Virus record (IMG/VR): IMGVR_UViG_2657245521_000009
Strand: one strand, 5' to 3'
Source of the DNA: a virus
Taxonomy: Duplodnaviria; Heunggongvirae; Uroviricota; Caudoviricetes
DNA: 11,592 nucleotides
Part shown: positions 1,647-10,100 of the stretch, in pieces
Numbering within the stretch: position 1 is the stretch's first letter
Layout of the letters: each line of letters starts with the position of its first letter
Translations under genes and position numbers: made by a program
The notes under the pieces: model-generated
What the model saw: the letters and a program-made list of their open reading frames with translations, nothing else
Databases searched by the model: none
What the model was told of the DNA's origin: nothing

Positions 1647-2387
1647 TCAGGGCCGGTTGACGTTTTTTCGCCAGCTTTCCCAGCCAAAATTTACCCATCG
1701 GCCACCGTTCATGGACATTCTGTCCATCACCCGCTGACCTGCCAGCTTAGTCAGTGCATCATGGTTCAGGTTGGTCAGCATTCCGACGCTGCGCAGGGAT
1801 GCGGTCCGGCGATCAACAATCTGGTGCAGGATGACCTGCTCGTTGCGTGTCTCACGCTGCACACCAACCTCATCAAGGATCAGCAGGTCCACTCCGCACA
1901 GCTCCTTCAAAAATTTTTCACCCGAATTTCCATCATCGTACCCGGCATGAAGCGCACTCATCACGTCGGCGACGGTGATAACAATCACACTGCGTCCGGC
2001 GTTCATCAGGCGGTTACCTATGGCGGCGGCCAGATGATTTTTGCCGGTACCAGGCTTACCGCTGAACACAAAATTTGTACAACCGGTATCCAGTTCAGCA
2101 GCTATGGATTTGGCCTGGCTGAGCGCATGCTTCTGGCCGTCATTCTGCACCCGGTAATTCTTGAACGAGCATCTGCGATGCAGTGGCTGAATACCGGCCC
2201 GACCGAAGATTTTTTCGGCCCTGGTCTGGCGGTTAAGTCGGTCAATTTCCTCGCAGCGTCTGCGCCCTTCGGCTAGCTGCCATTCCCGCCACTCCCCCGG
2301 CGTCCGGAACGGTGCGGAACTGTTGGCCGACCGTGGCGCCAGTTTCCTGATGCGGGCCAGAATCCCGGTATCTGCGATGTTTCTCAT
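1647..2387 (-). CDS. DnaC/IstB-like AAA+ helicase loader (phage replication protein), 246 aa
   Basis: Walker A GKPGTGKNHLAAAIG and Walker B LLILDEVG in the translation; directly follows the replication organizer gene with a 6-nt gap; SD GGGGGTGA upstream. Confidence 0.85.
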   Translation of the reverse strand: MRNIADTGILARIRKLAPRSANSSAPFRTPGEWREWQLAEGRRRCEEIDRLNRQTRAEKIFGRAGIQPLHRRCSFKNYRVQNDGQKHALSQAKSIAAELDTGCTNFVFSGKPGTGKNHLAAAIGNRLMNAGRSVIVITVADVMSALHAGYDDGNSGEKFLKELCGVDLLILDEVGVQRETRNEQVILHQIVDRRTASLRSVGMLTNLNHDALTKLAGQRVMDRMSMNGGRWVNFGWESWRKNVNRP

Positions 2388-2393
2388 GGCTTG

Positions 2394-3311
2394 TCACCCC
2401 CTGAAACCCGGTGGAATGGTTGTGTCCGGTGGCGAAATATCCTGAATCCTGGTCGGGCTGTCGCGGCCACGATTGCCTCCCCGGTCCTGGTCTTTTGCCA
2501 GCCAGCCGGTGATAAATTTCCTGATGCCTCGGGCGGTTTTTCGTCGTCGTCGTTCGCTGAGCAGCCATCCGCGCTGATTACGCAGTGCCTGCCGGACGTC
2601 GACCGCCGGATACAGCGTCTCAAACTCGACAACCATCGATTCGGTCACGGAAAATTCAGAACCGTCGTTGAGCGGAAGCCGAATAAACTCAGGGTCATCA
2701 GGCGGTGTTGATGGCACACCAGCGCTCAGAGGCCGACGCTCAGGTCCGACATGGGCTGGTCCGGTACCATCGGGCAAACTCGCACCCTGTGACCCGAAAT
2801 TTTCATCCAGTTGCGTGGGGCTGATTTTTTCAGCTCCGCGCAAGAGGTTTTGATCTTTTAGATCTGTTTCTTTATCTTTATCTGGATCTTTATTAGTTGC
2901 CTTTGTGTTGGGCTCCTGTTCAAACACAGAACCAACACCTGTTGAACATGTGTTATTTTCGCTGGCAGATTGTGCTTCCTTCCTGTTCCTTCTTGACTGA
3001 ACAGATGCTTTTCCTGCTGCAGACTTTTTCGCTAAGGTTTCCCTGACCGAATGAAGATCATCTTCAATACGCTTGTGAACCCACTCCGTGCCGTTATCAG
3101 TAAAAAATTCTCTCAACGACTCTTCTACGGCTCCCCAACGCTCACTGCTAACCCGGGCAATCTTTGCCAGCCTGTTTTTCGGTATAGCCCTTCCGGTCTG
3201 CCAGTAATTGAACATCAGCAGTAAATAGGCCCCATGCTCCTCGGTTGAAAGATGCATTGTGTCAGCCAAGTAATCAGCGATATAAAGCTGCATGTATGGA
3301 AGTGCCGCCAT
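2394..3311 (-). CDS. Phage replication initiation/organizer protein (DUF1376/YdaU-like N-terminal domain; lambda O analogue), 305 aa
   Basis: N-terminus MAALPYMQLYIADYLADTMHLSTEEHGAYLLLMFNYWQTG fits the DUF1376 pattern from memory; K/D-rich low-complexity linker; sits upstream of the DnaC-like gene as in O-P type replication modules; SD GAGG before the ATG at 3311. Confidence 0.75.
   Translation of the reverse strand: MAALPYMQLYIADYLADTMHLSTEEHGAYLLLMFNYWQTGRAIPKNRLAKIARVSSERWGAVEESLREFFTDNGTEWVHKRIEDDLHSVRETLAKKSAAGKASVQSRRNRKEAQSASENNTCSTGVGSVFEQEPNTKATNKDPDKDKETDLKDQNLLRGAEKISPTQLDENFGSQGASLPDGTGPAHVGPERRPLSAGVPSTPPDDPEFIRLPLNDGSEFSVTESMVVEFETLYPAVDVRQALRNQRGWLLSERRRRKTARGIRKFITGWLAKDQDRGGNRGRDSPTRIQDISPPDTTIPPGFRG
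2851..2895. other. Candidate replication origin iterons inside the organizer gene
   Basis: ATCTTT(T)A-type repeats starting near 2853, 2862, 2874, 2886 (10-12 bp spacing) with three GATC sites within 40 bp. Caveat: the same DNA encodes the KDPDKDKETDLKD linker, so the repetition may be purely coding. Confidence 0.25.
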
Positions 3312-3361
3312 AACGCCTCGCTACGCTCTTTTCCGTTCGGTCTGAATACAAAAATTAATAC

Positions 3362-3378
3362 TCACTGGTCATGTCTCT
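3362..3378 (-). repeat. Copy 1 of the 17-nt element AGAGACATGACCAGTGA (minus-strand sense)
   Basis: Plus strand 3362-3378 TCACTGGTCATGTCTCT is identical over 17 nt to 3951-3967; embedded ATG is 61 nt upstream of the organizer gene start (3311) and opens a mini-ORF MTSEY. Confidence 0.7.
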
Positions 3379-3451
3379 CTGTTTGGTGCCGAACCTCCTG
3401 CTGGTGCTAGCCTGCTGATTCCCCAACCAACAGAACCACAGGAGGTTCGAC

Positions 3452-3664
3452 ATGTCAGATACAAAACTTAAAAATGGATTAACGCCTGAACAAATGGCAC
3501 ACGATATCGCTATGGTGCTCATCGGGAACCCATCCCATGAATGGCTTTCGGATAATGCGACCAAAACTCGTAGCACTGAATTAGCAATGAGCGCTGTAGC
3601 AGAAGAAGTCATGAACATGGAAAAACATCTTGCTGCAGCTCTTCATCAGTACACGGAGAACTAA
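3452..3664 (+). CDS. Hypothetical small acidic protein, 70 aa, encoded antisense within the early-right (minus-strand) operon
   Basis: Consensus SD AGGAGG 6 nt before ATG 3452; followed 9 nt after the TAA stop by a strong intrinsic terminator; the overlapping minus-strand ORF 3355..3618 has antisense-like composition. No family recognised. Confidence 0.55.
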   Translation: MSDTKLKNGLTPEQMAHDIAMVLIGNPSHEWLSDNATKTRSTELAMSAVAEEVMNMEKHLAAALHQYTEN

Positions 3665-3672
3665 TCCGCATC

Positions 3673-3700
3673 AAAGGTCGCTGAGTTCGCGACCTTTTTT
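3673..3700. terminator. Rho-independent terminator between convergent genes; strong for plus-strand RNA, partial for minus
   Basis: Stem AAAGGTCGC/GCGACCTTT (3673-3681 / 3689-3697), 7-nt loop, T6 run 3695-3700. On the minus strand the same hairpin has only UUUGAUG after it, so it could act as a tR1-like partial terminator. Confidence 0.7.
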
Positions 3701-3921
3701 CAGTCCACTCCAGTAGGCATCCCCAACCATTTTTTTATATCGCTATAACTCAGCGTTATGGGCTGATTTTTGCCGGACTCTTCAACCGGTATGGTATGTT
3801 CCTCTTCAAATTTCTTTTCGAAGGTACGCATGTGCTCACGCCAGGCATTTCGATCTTCGATCGCTTCTTCCCTCCGGTTCAGTCTGGCGTAATACCGTTC
3901 CTGCTCAGTCAACGTTTTCAT
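3700..3921 (-). CDS. Hypothetical small protein, 73 aa
   Basis: ORF 3700..3954; start set at ATG 3921 because AGGAG lies 5 nt upstream; charged, helix-prone product MKTLTEQERYYARLNRREEAIEDRNAWREH... Confidence 0.5.
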   Translation of the reverse strand: MKTLTEQERYYARLNRREEAIEDRNAWREHMRTFEKKFEEEHTIPVEESGKNQPITLSYSDIKKWLGMPTGVD

Positions 3922-3937
3922 TACTTCTCCTGCATGG

Positions 3938-4441
3938 TTACAACAGATGGTCACTGGTCATGTCTCTGATACTGCTGGCGGTAACTGCTTCGTAGCGTCT
4001 GTATTGCTTGTATGGCTTCATCACACTCCCGTTCAAAATCCGTAACAGGCGCACCAAGAAGTACCGCATTTGCCACTGCGGTTTTTTTAAAAACTGTGTA
4101 AGCAGATACTCGATGCTATGCCCTGCCGTGACCTGCTTATGCAGCTCCGGCGCGTGTATCCGGATTGCTTCAAGAACTGCGGGGATTAGCGCTGAAAACT
4201 TTTCGCGGTGCTCTGTCGTTTCGAGTTTTCGCCATCGCTGAAAAATGTTTATACGATTCCGGCGCCATGCTTCGTAATCCACCGTTCCGTCATCACGTTC
4301 TATACGGTGGACAGCAATATCTGGTCTCACTTGCTGTTCCAGAAAGGCGCGGGTGATCAACTGTGTTGCACTTTCCTGACTCATTGCGGGTGTAGCCAGC
4401 CAGGATGACAGTGCTTTGTTGGCATCCTCAGGGGTGATCAT
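3938..4441 (-). CDS. CII-like regulator, YdaT-family (tentative), 167 aa
   Basis: Immediately downstream of the Cro-like gene, overlapping its stop by 14 nt; SD AGGTG 7 nt before ATG 4441; position and size match ydaT of Rac-type immunity regions. Family assignment is from recollection, not a search. Confidence 0.55.
   Translation of the reverse strand: MITPEDANKALSSWLATPAMSQESATQLITRAFLEQQVRPDIAVHRIERDDGTVDYEAWRRNRINIFQRWRKLETTEHREKFSALIPAVLEAIRIHAPELHKQVTAGHSIEYLLTQFLKKPQWQMRYFLVRLLRILNGSVMKPYKQYRRYEAVTASSIRDMTSDHLL
3951..3967 (-). repeat. Copy 2 of the 17-nt element AGAGACATGACCAGTGA (minus-strand sense)
   Basis: Identical 17-mer to 3362-3378; overlaps the last codons of the CII-like gene; embedded ATG is 40 nt upstream of the 73-aa gene start (3921). 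Confidence 0.7.
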
Positions 4442-4703
4442 CGTTGTTCACCTCTCTCGCATCCTTTAGTGGTAGATTTTGATGGCTAGGCAAAGCATCC
4501 GTTGGATTAGGGTAAAGAACTGAGTCGAGCTGATGCGGTGTAACTGCATACCCTACGGCCTCACAAAAAGGAATAATTCGTCGCGGTGGGAATTTTCCTG
4601 TTGTAACCCATAGACTTACGTTTTGCTGACTAGTTTTAAGACGTCGGGCGATCTCGGTCTGATTAGTGATGCCGAATAGTCGGCTCCTGGTTTTAAATTC
4701 CAT
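4428..4703 (-). CDS. Cro-like HTH regulator, YdaS-family pattern, 91 aa
   Basis: HTH segment GITNQTEIARRLKTSQQNVSLWV followed by the P..R...EAVGY.V....L motif typical of YdaS-like proteins; GGAGG 4 nt before ATG 4703; divergent from the repressor gene across a 102-bp operator region. Confidence 0.7.
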   Translation of the reverse strand: MEFKTRSRLFGITNQTEIARRLKTSQQNVSLWVTTGKFPPRRIIPFCEAVGYAVTPHQLDSVLYPNPTDALPSHQNLPLKDAREVNNDDHP

Positions 4704-4805
4704 ATATCCTCCAAATGTCACACTTGTATAAATACAGCATGAACTTGTATTTTACAAATTTAAATTTGTGTGACGCTAACAAAATTTACTTGTAAAATAT
4801 GAGGT
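4704..4805. promoter_or_regulatory. Divergent promoter/operator region between the cro-like and cI-like genes (OR-like)
   Basis: AT-rich; perfect 16-bp palindrome ACAAATTTAAATTTGT (4754-4769); TTGTA-N3-TACAA inverted repeat (4745-4757); ACTTGTA half-sites at 4722-4728, 4743-4749, 4788-4794; TTGTAAAAT present in both orientations (candidate -10 elements); TAAAAT 4793-4798 ends 7 nt before the repressor ATG. Confidence 0.6.
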
Positions 4806-5240
4806 ATGAAAAAAAACAACGAATCAGCTCAATACGAGACTTCAGCCAGAAGGATCAAACAGGTCCTGTATGAATTAGGCTGGAACCAAAGTCGCCTGGC
4901 TAAAGAAATTGGGGTTTCAGCTCAGGCGGTACAACAATGGGCAAAAGGTACTTCTCGACCGAATGGCCCTAATCTAACTCGACTTTCTGAAGTCACAAGC
5001 AAACCTGAAGCATGGTTTTTCAGTGATGTCAGCGGGTTATCTGAGAGTCATGCAGTACATTTACCAGAAAGTAATGGTTCAGACTTTCTCCCGCTTAGCG
5101 ATGAAGAGATCAGACTGCTAACTGTCTTCAGGAAATTTCCTTCTGTAGAGAGTAAAAACATGCTGTTAGCGTTTGAGATGAGACTTCAGGAGATAAAAGA
5201 ATACTATTCCAAATACGCTAATCCCAATAAAAACCGATAG
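4806..5240 (+). CDS. CI/RacR-like prophage repressor, HTH_XRE N-terminal domain, no S24 peptidase domain, 144 aa
   Basis: HTH QSRLAKEIGVSAQAVQQWAKG; divergent from the cro-like gene; C-terminal 60 aa lack an Ala-Gly cleavage site and Ser-Lys dyad; candidate -10 immediately upstream suggests a short or absent leader. Confidence 0.8.
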   Translation: MKKNNESAQYETSARRIKQVLYELGWNQSRLAKEIGVSAQAVQQWAKGTSRPNGPNLTRLSEVTSKPEAWFFSDVSGLSESHAVHLPESNGSDFLPLSDEEIRLLTVFRKFPSVESKNMLLAFEMRLQEIKEYYSKYANPNKNR

Positions 5241-6123: not shown

Positions 6124-6308
6124 CAGAATGAATTTTATAGTGTGGTGAATGCGGCTCAGCGCACGTGACACAGTTAAAAACATGTCAGTCCTTCATCTGT
6201 TGATGGGTGGGAATGTTCGTCGGCAGTAATGGTTAGCTGTTTACTGTCACCGGGAGGCACCCGGCACCACACTCCAAAATTCATTGTGTTACCAGAATGG
6301 AGACAACT

Positions 6309-6599
6309 ATGCCAGTTACACCTGAAATAAAACAAAACTCAGACTGGATGCGGCGCAACAAATCTGAACAAACCGCCCCTGCCTGTAAGCCTGGTATTAT
6401 TCAGAAAATATTAAGTACGCTGAACCAGAAAGGTGACCCCACCCTTATTCCTTGCGCTTATTGTGGCAAAGCCATCAACAAAAGTGAAATCGTGGAGCAT
6501 GAACTTATTTATATAAACGGAAGTCAGCTCGCAAGAAAAACGAATCTATATTGCAGTAAACGATGTGCCGAATATGACCAGATGGCACATGAATCTTAA
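6309..6599 (+). CDS. Hypothetical Cys-containing small protein (CAYCGK ... CSKRC, possible zinc ribbon), 96 aa
   Basis: ORF 6297..6599; start set at ATG 6309, which has GGAGA 5 nt upstream; family not recognised. Confidence 0.5.
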   Translation: MPVTPEIKQNSDWMRRNKSEQTAPACKPGIIQKILSTLNQKGDPTLIPCAYCGKAINKSEIVEHELIYINGSQLARKTNLYCSKRCAEYDQMAHES

Positions 6600-6682: not shown

Positions 6683-7015
6683 ATGAGAAAGACACCGAGC
6701 GAATCAGTAATTAATGAACTCAACAAACGAGCAAAGGAAATTCTTGAACTGTGTGAGAAAAACGATATTCCGGTTGTTTTTTGTTACTCATTCGAATTAA
6801 GCCGGAATGAAAATGGATATTTAAACAACAAATCCATTACAGCTTATATCAATAAAGAGAAAGGAGCATGGGATTCAACAATAGCCGCAGCCAGCATGAT
6901 CCTGCGGATGAAAGAGGTTCCTGAGATAGCTATCCATGCAATGGCTGAAATGGCTGCGATTTGTGACATCACACGGACTGCATCCGGTACTTCAGATGAA
7001 AAAAGCCTGCACTAA
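6683..7015 (+). CDS. Hypothetical protein, 110 aa
   Basis: ORF 6683..7015 with ATG start and weak AAGAGA SD; followed by a terminator-like hairpin that contains its stop codon; family not recognised. Confidence 0.5.
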   Translation: MRKTPSESVINELNKRAKEILELCEKNDIPVVFCYSFELSRNENGYLNNKSITAYINKEKGAWDSTIAAASMILRMKEVPEIAIHAMAEMAAICDITRTASGTSDEKSLH

Positions 7016-7027
7016 GGCAGGCATTTT
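7005..7027 (+). terminator. Candidate intrinsic terminator after the 110-aa gene
   Basis: 6-bp GC stem GCCTGC/GCAGGC (7005-7010 / 7017-7022), 6-nt loop containing the TAA stop, then ATTTT; same stem sequence as the hairpin at 5267-5293. Confidence 0.45.
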
Positions 7028-7078
7028 CCCGGTTTTTACATCCCGGCGATGCTGAGGTGGGCGACCAAACCCACCGAC

Positions 7079-7095
7079 AGAGACATGACCAATGA
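7079..7095 (+). repeat. Copy 3 of the 17-nt element (AGAGACATGACCAATGA), plus-strand sense
   Basis: 16/17 identical to the minus-strand copies; embedded ATG is 67 nt upstream of the recE start (7152) and opens a mini-ORF MTNEHQR; flanked by hairpins at 7056-7075 and 7102-7122. Confidence 0.65.
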
Positions 7096-7151
7096 GCACC
7101 AGAGGTGATCACCGATCGCCTCATTCTAAACAGAAGTGAGGTTAAAAAACA

Positions 7152-10100
7152 ATGAGTGATAAGAAAGAAGATTTCGCGCTGTACTGCCCTGTTAAAAATG
7201 AAGAGGCCAGGAAACGACTTGGAATAAAAGCAGGCTTTTTCTGGGCAACTGCAAAAAAATTATCTGTGGCTGTTTCCCGCTGTATTGCTGCTATGGACGA
7301 TAAGGGGTATGACGAGGATGACTTTAAAAAACCTGTTCGCGTCAATTACCCCGTCGTTAACGACCTGCCTCCTGAAGGCGTGTTTGATACTGAATTCTGC
7401 AACCGTTACGAAAAAGGCGGTCAGGGTGGTATCACAATGGTACTTATCCCCGGCGCTGTTCCCGCCGATCCAATGCACGGCGAAGTCGGCAGGGATATTA
7501 CTGGCAGCGGCAACGCAGACGCAGACGCAGACGCAGGCACAGACGCAGATAATGCTACGGACAATACCGAAAGTACGCTCCTCCCCGCTTACGCTTATAA
7601 CGTCAACGGCGAACTGATGTCGGAAGTGGAAAAGGAAATGTCGCAGCCTGTTTCAGGACTAAGTCTGCCACTTCGTTTCCTGGCGCAATTTAATAACGAC
7701 TGTCCACAACATCAGGTCACACCAGAGCGTTTACGGGAGTTAAACCTTACAGAGCAGGATCCCGACAGTCGTACCGGAACTATTTTACTCGCCATCCAGA
7801 ACAGAAAGGAACAGCTCGAAAAACTGGACACAAAAAACCTGCATCCTTTGGCGACGTACATTGAAAAAGTATTTCCCTGCGGAAAACGACCACAACTCAA
7901 TGATGTCATTAATTTTATCGATGCCGTACTTAATACAGACTATGTCGATCGCGGACTGCTCGTTAAGGAATGGTGCGAAGGTCGTCGAGCCGCGTGCGTA
8001 GAGCATGTAACAGCACCAGAAACCAGGCGTGATAATACTGTGTCAGCGCAGACGGAAACGAAGACTACTGTCACTGAACGTCCGCGTCGTAGCGAAAAAA
8101 CAACGCACCGGACGATTAATTATGAAATTGGCTGTGGCTTATATGACGGCGAGCTGGATCTTCATAACCTGAGGGAACCGCTGGATTTTGCGAAACGCAT
8201 TATGGCGAAAGACCGGGAAGACTGGAAAGTATGGTCAGACACAATCAACTGCATCCCTGGCATCCTGAATTATGACCGCCAGACCATTATCGAGATGGTA
8301 CGAAAAGCCCCCACCCCGACTTATCACAGTGCTGCACTGCGCCGCGAGTGGTGTGATTCTTATCTGCGAGCCTGGGGACGGCTCGATCCCGACTGGAGCC
8401 AGAGCGCCGCTGTCAAAACAGCAGAGTCACATGAAGATGTCTGTGCTGATATCAGGAAGGCCGGAAAGCGCCTGCGTGAAATTGAATCAGGAGTTGGGAT
8501 CAATGAAGAAAAACAGACGACACAGGGAGAACTGGCAGATGAACCGTCAGCGCCTGAATCAGTGGAACCGGCTTCAGCTGAACATCAGCAGAATACGCAG
8601 CCGCTGGATGCTGAGGCATCTGTAAACACCACTAAAACGGAATTCGATGTATTTGCTCTAATGCAGAACTCATCTGTTTATGGCAGCAAAAACACACAGG
8701 AGACGACCAGCAATGTGCAGGTTCAGGACGCTGAAAAGGATGAAAAACAGGCTGGTACTGAAGTTCAGTCAGGCGAAAGCAGTCTGGGAACTGGTGAAGA
8801 GTCAGATACCAGACAGCAAGCCGATGTAAACCAGAATACGGATTCTGTCGCCCAAAATAGCGATTCTGTAAACCAAACTGAACCAGTTTTGGCACAAACC
8901 GAGCCAGAAGTGCAATCTGACGAACCGGCTGTTGTTTACCCCGCTTACTTCGAACCAGGCCGCTATGAGGGTCTGCCGAACGAGGTTTATCACGCAGCCA
9001 ACGGTATCAGCTCGACAATGGTAAAAGATGCGCGGGTGAGCCTGATGTACTTCAATGCGCGCCACGTAGAGAAAACCATTATCAAAGAACGCTCTCCTGT
9101 ACTGGATATCGGTAACCTGGTGCATGCACTGGCGTTGCAGCCAGATCAACTCGATGAAGAATTCAGCATTGAACCCGTAATTCCGGAAGGTGCATTTACC
9201 ACCACGGCAACGATCCGCGCGTTTATTGATGAGCACAACGCCAGCCTGACAGCGATGCTGTCAGCCGACGACATCAAAGCACTGTTAGAAGAGTACAACG
9301 CCACCCTTCCTGCTCAGGTTCAGTTAGGTGGTTCCGTGGAGGAAACTGGCCAGAGCTATATGTCGCTGCCAGAAGAGTTCCAGCGTCTCGAAGCGGACAA
9401 GAAGCAGACCGCAGCGGCAATGAAAGCCTGCATCAAGGAATACAACACCACACTGCCTGCACAAGTGAAAATCAGCGGTAGCCGTGATGCGTTACTCGAG
9501 CAGTTAGCAATCATCAATCCTGACCTGGTGGCGCAGGAAGCGCAGAAGCCCGCGCAGTTGAAAGTGTCCGGCACCAAAGCGGATCTGATTCAGGCCGTGA
9601 AGTCTGTTAATCCTGATGCCATCTTCGCCGACGAACTGCTGGATGCGTGGCGCGAAAATACGCAAGGGAAAGTGCTGGTCACCCGCCAGCAACTGAGCAC
9701 TGCACTGAGCATTCAGAAAGCCCTGCTCGAGCACCCTACAGCGGGCAAGCTACTGACACACCCGAGCCGCGCCGTTGAGGTGAGCTACTTCGGTTTTGAC
9801 GACGAAACCGGTCTGGAAGTCCGCGTTCGTCCCGACCTTGAGATCGATCTTGACGGGGTGCGCATCGGCGCCGACCTGAAAACCATCAGCATGTGGAACA
9901 TTAAACAGGAAGGTCTGCGCGCCAAACTGCACCGCGAAATCATCGACCGTGACTACCACCTGAGTGCTGCCATGTATTGCGAGACCGCAGCGCTTGACCA
10001 GTTCTTCTGGATTTTCGTCAACAAAGACGAGAACTACCACTGGATCGCCATCATCGAGGCATCCGCCGAACTTCTGGAACTGGGCATGCTGGAGTACCGC

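Follow-up and report, generated by a model that had tools for sequence, protein, structure and literature searches.

A 70-codon antisense gene behind a conserved, portable head in a Rac-like prophage: a putative moron at a cargo-exchange hotspot

Why should the early operon of a prophage be interrupted by a single short open reading frame (ORF) that points the other way, and is that ORF a gene at all? The question is raised by a stretch of viral DNA of 11,592 nt (the window, by which the whole stretch is meant hereafter), which corresponds to the part of a Rac-like lambdoid prophage that governs immunity and replication. A preliminary description of this DNA had drawn attention to a 70-aa ORF lying as a stand-alone unit antisense in the minus-strand early operon. 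The neighbouring genes are arranged as follows.

1647-2387, minus strand: DnaC-like loader gene
2394-3311, minus strand: DUF1376/YdaU-like replication-initiator gene (family match)
3700-3954, minus strand: early-operon flank gene, 84 aa from a GTG or 73 aa from an internal ATG
3938-4441, minus strand: YdaT/CII-like gene
4428-4721, minus strand: YdaS/Cro-like gene
4806-5240, plus strand: HTH repressor gene
part of 6297-6599, plus strand: 96-aa ORF (YdaE, PF27493, is called in the relatives L004-L006)
minus strand of the window: DUF1627 gene
plus strand of the window: RecE and RecT genes

No conserved ORF was found on the operon strand between the genes at 3700-3954 and 2394-3311, and the earlier statement that about 390 nt of this strand carry no convincing sense ORF can therefore be kept. 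The stop codon of the 84-aa gene abuts the terminator of the antisense unit; a counterpart of this gene is called at the same spot in L004-L006, and no family match was found for it in the family searches. E. coli and Salmonella records contain both the exact 70-aa protein and the YdaU-family protein. Two further observations concern the surroundings. The gene in the repressor position (4806-5240, plus strand, 144 aa) encodes an HTH domain without an S24 peptidase domain, so that its product resembles RacR/DicA more than lambda CI in predicted domain make-up and induction presumably does not proceed via RecA-mediated self-cleavage; in L005 and L006 a different repressor (Phage_CI_repr, 125 aa) lies beside the same cassette. 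In the 69-nt spacer between the start of the YdaU-like gene and the antisense unit, which is conserved among YdaU-type loci, the sequence ACGCTCTTTTC occurs at 3322-3332 (plus strand, antisense to the early operon), which we take to resemble a lambdoid boxA (CGCTCTTA).

The antisense unit itself, referred to below as the cassette, consists of three parts.

3380-3451, plus strand: conserved "cassette head" of 72 nt, a promoter-like region and 5' leader (covariance model R1)
3452-3664, plus strand: gene for the 70-aa protein (conservation and coding selection)
3673-3700, plus strand: intrinsic terminator of the cassette (hairpin and T6)

The ORF and its Shine-Dalgarno sequence (SD) were found as previously claimed, with AGGAGG at 3440-3445, 6 nt 5' of the ATG. 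That this 70-codon ORF is a real gene is concluded not from its length, which is within chance (the window holds 87 ORFs of at least 40 aa), but from several features of its homologues: the conservation of ORF, leader and terminator, indels in multiples of three, an excess of third-position changes, and in addition the AT skew. At the homologous loci the ORF always lies on the same strand and is accompanied by the leader and the terminator, and homologues that are only 49% identical retain all three despite different flanks. The indels in the coding region are multiples of three, and substitutions are concentrated at third codon positions (dN/dS 0.07-0.28); judged by this pattern the product of 3452-3664 is evolving as a protein, under purifying selection. 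The AT skew turns positive over 3400-3700, over the gene only.

The same data bear on the opposite possibility, namely that the true gene is the minus-strand ORF at 3355-3618, an 87-aa member of the early operon, and that the plus-strand ORF is spurious. An ATG-initiated ORF of this length is indeed present on the operon strand. It has no SD, however, its product has no protein relatives and no family matches, and both the substitution pattern and the AT skew fit coding on the plus strand. Conserved homologues of this ORF were looked for and not found: its frame survives in the homologous loci just as fragments of 31-60 aa with differing ends. Broken in this way, it can for practical purposes be ruled out as the real gene.

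The terminator has a stem of 3673-3681/3689-3697 with the G+C core GGTCGC/GCGACC, a T6 run at 3695-3700 and a folding energy of -13.1 kcal/mol (z -2.8). It is conserved in the homologous loci L001, L002 and L003, where a compensatory change has turned the core into GGCCGC/GCGGCC, and it is also present in L249 and L252. A simple terminator scan did not pick it up, in our opinion because three T of the run pair with the AAA of the stem. The asymmetry ascribed to this structure holds, since in the minus-strand reading UUUGAU alone follows the hairpin; the further suggestion that it might act as a tR1-like checkpoint did not gain ground, the one point in its favour being this weak reverse U-tract. 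A conserved tail common to all cassettes was considered and dropped, as the sequences past the stop codons differ and the GGCCGC terminator is common to only some of the genes found behind the head.

The 70-aa protein is acidic (pI 5.1) and hydrophilic (GRAVY -0.44), and structure prediction yielded three soluble helices (pLDDT 72). The preliminary description had not recognised it, and our searches agree: no match was obtained in Pfam, PHROGs, NCBIfam or the PDB sequences, nor a fold match in Foldseek searches against the PDB and BFVD. Relatives were sought with a word-indexed search of 5.8 billion sequences and an exhaustive HMM search of 1.84 billion representatives. The family comprises seven clusters (P0001-P0006 and the window protein) from E. 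coli, Salmonella and Edwardsiella, neither protein search returned members beyond these, and the family is very rare. The Edwardsiella homologue P0006 (66 aa) is 32% identical to the window protein. Deposited phages gave neither a DNA nor a tblastn match to the gene, megablast against complete E. coli genomes was likewise negative, and scans with a protein pattern found nothing in a set of one genome per species or in the JGI metagenomes. Among the PADLOC profiles of defence families there was a marginal partial match to the candidate family PDC-M18A (E 4.9e-4, residues 13-66) and no similarity beyond it. When the gene was compared with its homologue at L001:6001-6222, a mosaic break was seen within it: codons 1-25 are 85% identical, while the 3' two-thirds of the coding sequence are 35% identical and saturated. 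Such a pattern suggests either that recombination took place inside the ORF or that a conserved N-terminal module has been joined to a C-terminal helix that evolves rapidly.

The most informative feature of the locus is one that is absent from the preliminary description, the conserved 72-nt head upstream of the ATG. In an alignment of the homologous loci (A1) conservation is higher over the roughly 70 nt 5' of the ATG than within the coding sequence; the head shares 93% identity with that of L001, compared with 36% for the 100 nt upstream of it. The covariance model R1 matched the window at 3380-3457 with 84 bits, and no additional head was found when the window was scanned. A search pattern built from both ends of the head retrieved 87 viral contigs as well as genomes of Salmonella, Citrobacter, Klebsiella and Izhakiella, and every locus retrieved with a pattern from the 3' half alone has a recognisable 5' half. 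With one head variant as blastn query, matches were obtained in 635 of 5,426 complete E. coli genomes (about 12%, with at most four copies per genome), and in one of 50,697 deposited phage genomes. In Edwardsiella the head is present in diverged form. The single deposited phage is "Actinobacillus phage vB_Apl-pPE4" (L300; PP818812.1 4889-11962), the head of which is 97% identical to E. coli heads and whose immunity and replication region (DicA, YdaT, Kil, exonuclease VIII) is like that of an E. coli Rac-type phage; its host assignment may be questionable. An Rfam covariance search gave no match in the window at the gathering threshold, and only chance-level hits (E about 1 or more) in 3250-3760. 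No tRNA-like element was found for the head, and LexA, CRP or FNR-type boxes, an invertible-promoter switch, a MITE and an integron attC site were dropped by eye because of the spacing, the arm distance or the exact fusion of head and ATG.

Within the head, the following elements were recognised.

3383-3388, plus strand: -35-like hexamer TTGGTG (conserved columns)
3405-3413, plus strand: -10-like hexamer TAGCCT (3408-3413) preceded by TGC, extended -10-like
3390-3399, plus strand: distal arm CGAACCTCCT, an "anti-SD" complementary to the SD/start region
3440-3451, plus strand: proximal arm, the SD AGGAGG (3440-3445) and the spacer TTCGAC
3382-3452, minus strand: complement of the head in the early-operon transcript, predicted to form a long near-continuous hairpin

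On the plus strand the head reads as a predicted sigma-70 promoter with a short leader. Most heads carry (T/C)TGGTG, 17-18 nt and TAnnnT, and this spacing is kept across head classes that differ by indels and in divergent heads that were retrieved via their cargo protein. In a further alignment (A3) T29 and A30 do not vary, T34 hardly varies and TGG at columns 5-7 shows little or no variation, and pairing offers no explanation for any of them. From the end of the -10-like box to the start codon there are 36-39 nt, and a C- and A-rich leader of about 30 nt is predicted accordingly. The window head, with TGC-TAGCCT at 19-nt spacing, belongs to the weakest promoter class among the heads, and a simple promoter scan did not call it. 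A hint of expression behind the head comes from a different cargo, ECs1072 (see below), which is listed as a growth-phase-regulated transcript in uninduced O157 Sakai. Expression of the gene from the head promoter in lysogens appears reasonably probable.

The head is at the same time an inverted repeat. The distal arm CGAACCTCCT (3390-3399) is a perfect 10-bp complement of AGGAGGTTCG (3440-3449), and AGGAGGTTCGAC, followed directly by ATG, precedes every cargo family. In Edwardsiella both arms have changed together, to CGAATCTCC and GGAGATTCG, a compensatory replacement of C:G by T:A that was seen once, there; uncompensated variants occur in the distal arm. When two helix positions were freed in the search, the Edwardsiella type and one probable chance match were retrieved, and nothing more. 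With the inner helices P1b and P2 a long hairpin can form on either strand, and the window head folds with -41.0 kcal/mol (z -6.0) on the minus strand and -26.8 kcal/mol (z -3.4) on the plus strand. Pairing was counted over 57 distinct heads aligned by fitting to the model: on either strand P1 is paired to about 91%, P1b reaches 97% on the minus versus 74% on the plus strand, and P2 87% versus 80%, figures to be read in the light of outer arms that were fixed by the search patterns, of heads that are mutually related and of a C/A-rich plus strand. P2 has compensatory pair types; one pair, for example, is U-A in 21 heads and G-C in 28. The most divergent heads have no significant fold on either strand. 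In our reading of the sequences the plus strand would serve as promoter and leader, and the hairpin would belong to the early-operon RNA.

An inverted repeat that sequesters an SD is, however, not accounted for if the promoter lies inside the repeat, and this counts against the cassette reading. It could be explained if the mRNA began 5' of the head and the 10-12-bp anti-SD:SD helix silenced translation until phage infection, RNA processing or a trans-acting RNA opened it, an arrangement that would liken the gene to the type I toxins or to the IsrK-controlled Gifsy-1 message. The perfect complementarity of the distal arm to SD and spacer, in which the A of the AUG can also take part, agrees with such gating, as do the compensatory change in Edwardsiella, the tolerance on the plus strand of the U:G wobble of the majority class, and the CT-rich stretch with which divergent heads pair their own SD in the plus-strand minimum-energy fold. 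Moreover, one protein found under the same head, PD-Lambda-6, is by eye a predicted small membrane protein, a kind that is often toxic. A conserved promoter 5' of the head or of the distal arm was looked for and not found, however, the flanks there being unrelated, and the promoter-like boxes place the distal arm in their spacer, upstream of the likely transcription start. The 70-aa protein, hydrophilic and acidic, is not toxin-like and is not the small hydrophobic membrane protein that defines a type I toxin. Uncompensated distal-arm changes also speak against a gating helix, and a symmetric protein-binding site could explain the inverted repeat equally well. We consider translational gating improbable.

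The ORF that begins with the ATG behind the head belongs to one of about ten unrelated families, each cargo being a single small gene (56-157 aa): the ECs1072 family (NF033230), phrog_4753, a 151-155-aa family, a 67-83-aa family, the 70-aa family, a BssS-like protein, a 71-aa family, several singletons and the 131-aa PD-Lambda-6. The commonest is the ECs1072 family, annotated under this NCBIfam entry in hundreds of E. coli genomes. Wherever the flanks are recognisable, the cassette is in antisense orientation, with cro/YdaT to one side of it and O/DnaC to the other. The Rac prophage of K-12 has no insert at this site, ydaT and ydaU being 12 nt apart there, and in lambda cII and O are separated by 32 nt. 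An exception to this position is Edwardsiella, where N and recE of the pL operon flank P0006, which is antisense there and has a diverged head and a terminator of its own. On a 2.3-kb contig (L252) a cassette carrying P0005 is accompanied by a second, the cargo of which is Cys-rich and 94 aa long. In these cases the head travels with the cargo, and 3380-3700 is very probably a modular cassette at a hotspot. The stand-alone antisense unit of the preliminary description is borne out, and a unit of this type recurs at the junction with the unrelated cargos. Its likening to a moron stood with respect to the terminator and to the position between genes that are adjacent in K-12 Rac and lambda, but not with respect to an atypical GC content: the cassette has a GC of 0.47, that of the flanks being 0.45-0.49.

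Several side observations were made at these loci. In L252:554-909 (plus strand) a head scoring 67.8 bits precedes the Cys-rich ORF (CxxC...CxxC, 94 aa), for which gene callers chose the opposite strand, and the proximal arm of this second cassette, GGAGGTCCGGC, is two helix positions off the standard arm. Large variable plus-strand genes adjoin the 66-aa Edwardsiella homologue in the interval from N to the recE side (L249:5901-9458, L251:6007-7524 and L251:8710-10092, encoding proteins of 1185, 505 and 460 aa, the last a SIR2_2 protein), so that the Edwardsiella pL operon looks like a second antisense hotspot of defence type. In an E. coli O103 prophage with an ECs1072 cassette (L102), RelB/RelE lie directly past the repressor gene and hokD further on (7007-7485 and 98-253), which points to several accessory modules around the immunity region. 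Finally, several cargos behind intact heads are cut short by a frameshift or a stop codon (L022:3194-3440, L030, L047, L014), among them the BssS-like protein as 56 aa, phrog_4753 at 35-36 aa and a 10-aa stub in Klebsiella; judged from these sequences, decay of the cargo with retention of the head does occur.

With respect to the function of the cargos, the preliminary description had held that such positions often contain exclusion or defence factors. This gains indirect support in that the 131-aa cargo of contig L095 is a full-length match to PD-Lambda-6 (PADLOC PDLC04020, E 6.9e-89), reportedly a gene selected for anti-lambda defence in the Vassallo 2022 work. Term searches of that article (PMC9519451) did not retrieve PD-Lambda-6. 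The claim does not extend to every cargo, since the BssS-like one belongs to a biofilm regulator family and the hotspot is therefore not restricted to defence. Because PD-Lambda-6 shares the head, defence or exclusion is the leading guess for the 70-aa protein; the association has one validated cargo as its basis, and by this analogy the role is possible rather than probable.

We therefore favour, at a probability of about 60%, the reading of the unit as a lysogen-expressed moron at the ydaT|ydaU (cII|O-equivalent) hotspot of a Rac-like prophage. In a lysogen, the sigma-70 promoter of the head (TTGGTG ... TAGCCT) would transcribe the gene behind a leader of some 30 nt with a consensus SD, and the terminator would halt the transcript before it ran antisense into ydaT/cro. 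After induction, opposing transcription from the early promoter would cross the cassette and suppress the gene; the complement of the head would then fold, placing a stable hairpin just 5' of the replication genes, where it may serve as a processing or stabilising structure. The protein would be a factor of benefit to the lysogen, most likely one protecting it against superinfecting phages.

The strength of the minus-strand fold and the place of the head also invite the view that what is conserved is a regulatory role, with the protein as a passenger. As an analogue of lambda po, the head would fire against the early operon and, by transcriptional interference, antisense pairing and RNase III cleavage, curb expression of the replication genes that is leaky or comes too early; the complement hairpin would be part of this control, for instance as a processing or stabilising site upstream of O, and the cargo genes would exploit a promoter that is active in lysogens. 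Position and orientation match those of lambda po/oop, no cargo or flank comes near the head in conservation, the fold is stronger on the minus strand (-41 kcal/mol, z -6.0), and there the inner helices pair better, with compensatory pair types. The head moves, however, with the cargo and not with the replication genes, as seen in the Edwardsiella pL operon and twice in L252, and the cargo is under purifying selection. The transcript ends before overlapping ydaT or the 84-aa gene, whereas oop overlaps cII, and the divergent heads L288 and L294 have lost the minus-strand fold while retaining promoter-like boxes and SD. A primarily regulatory head is in our view possible but doubtful; it is compatible with the moron reading and does not exclude it.

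A broader and rather unlikely version of the moron reading would make the head a previously unrecognised bifunctional module, promoter and leader on one strand and a structured early-operon RNA on the other, of a cassette system widespread in enterobacterial lambdoid prophages whose uncharacterised cargos would be new anti-phage or lysogeny factors. If this were true, any gene behind the head would be expressed in the lysogen, would be silenced upon induction and could be swapped through recombination at the head, and the 70-aa protein, the ECs1072 family, phrog_4753 and others could be found by a search for the head alone. Irrespective of this, the head is a brief conserved stretch of DNA that tags a slot for cargo in about 12% of the complete E. 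coli genomes and provides a cheap way of listing candidate lysogen-benefit genes, and the locus offers a compact system for examining how a head-on gene inside an essential lytic operon is tolerated and switched.

Literature searches on ECs1072, PD-lambda-6, the ydaT hotspot, the cII/O junction and the head sequence found, within the terms chosen, no description of the site, perhaps because the head is nearly missing from deposited phage genomes (1/50,697). As far as searched, the junction as a hotspot, the conserved portable head and the protein family are new; morons, prophage hotspots and an antisense promoter at the cII|O junction are already known in kind. Morons of lambdoid phages, as known from Juhala and Hendrix, are units of promoter, gene and terminator inserted between two phage genes, for example bor and lom of lambda and gp15 of HK97, and an atypical base composition is common in them but not obligatory. 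The window unit is like them in having promoter-like boxes, a strong SD, one gene and an intrinsic terminator, in its varying cargo and in its position between genes that are adjacent in a related prophage (K-12 Rac). It differs in that one conserved inverted-repeat head is reused for about ten cargos across genera, in lying antisense in the early operon and not in late or accessory regions, and in a GC content that is not atypical.

At the cII|O junction of lambda, oop is a 77-nt non-coding RNA over the 3' end of cII. The head lies at the same junction and its putative promoter is directed from O towards cII, against transcription from pR; in contrast to oop the unit is protein-coding and ends at 3700, before the upstream gene, and the head has no sequence or Rfam similarity to oop. 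Of the cargos with a named family, PD-Lambda-6 shares the hotspot and the head with the 70-aa gene and likewise lies between YdaU-like and YdaT-like genes, but is a 131-aa protein with a hydrophobic N-terminus and without sequence similarity to the 70-aa protein; the ECs1072 family (NF033230) is also a cargo of the same head, but an unrelated protein of about 150 aa. The closest parallel to the site as a whole is given by the defence hotspots of P2-like prophages and P4-like satellites (Rousset 2022, PMC9122126; Vassallo 2022, PMC9519451). Like these, the junction combines a fixed position in the phage backbone with interchangeable, mostly uncharacterised cargo that includes a validated defence gene. 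It differs from them in the type of phage (Rac-like/lambdoid), in the junction that is used and in cargos that are single small genes, and the site is marked here by a conserved regulatory head, there by the flanking genes only.
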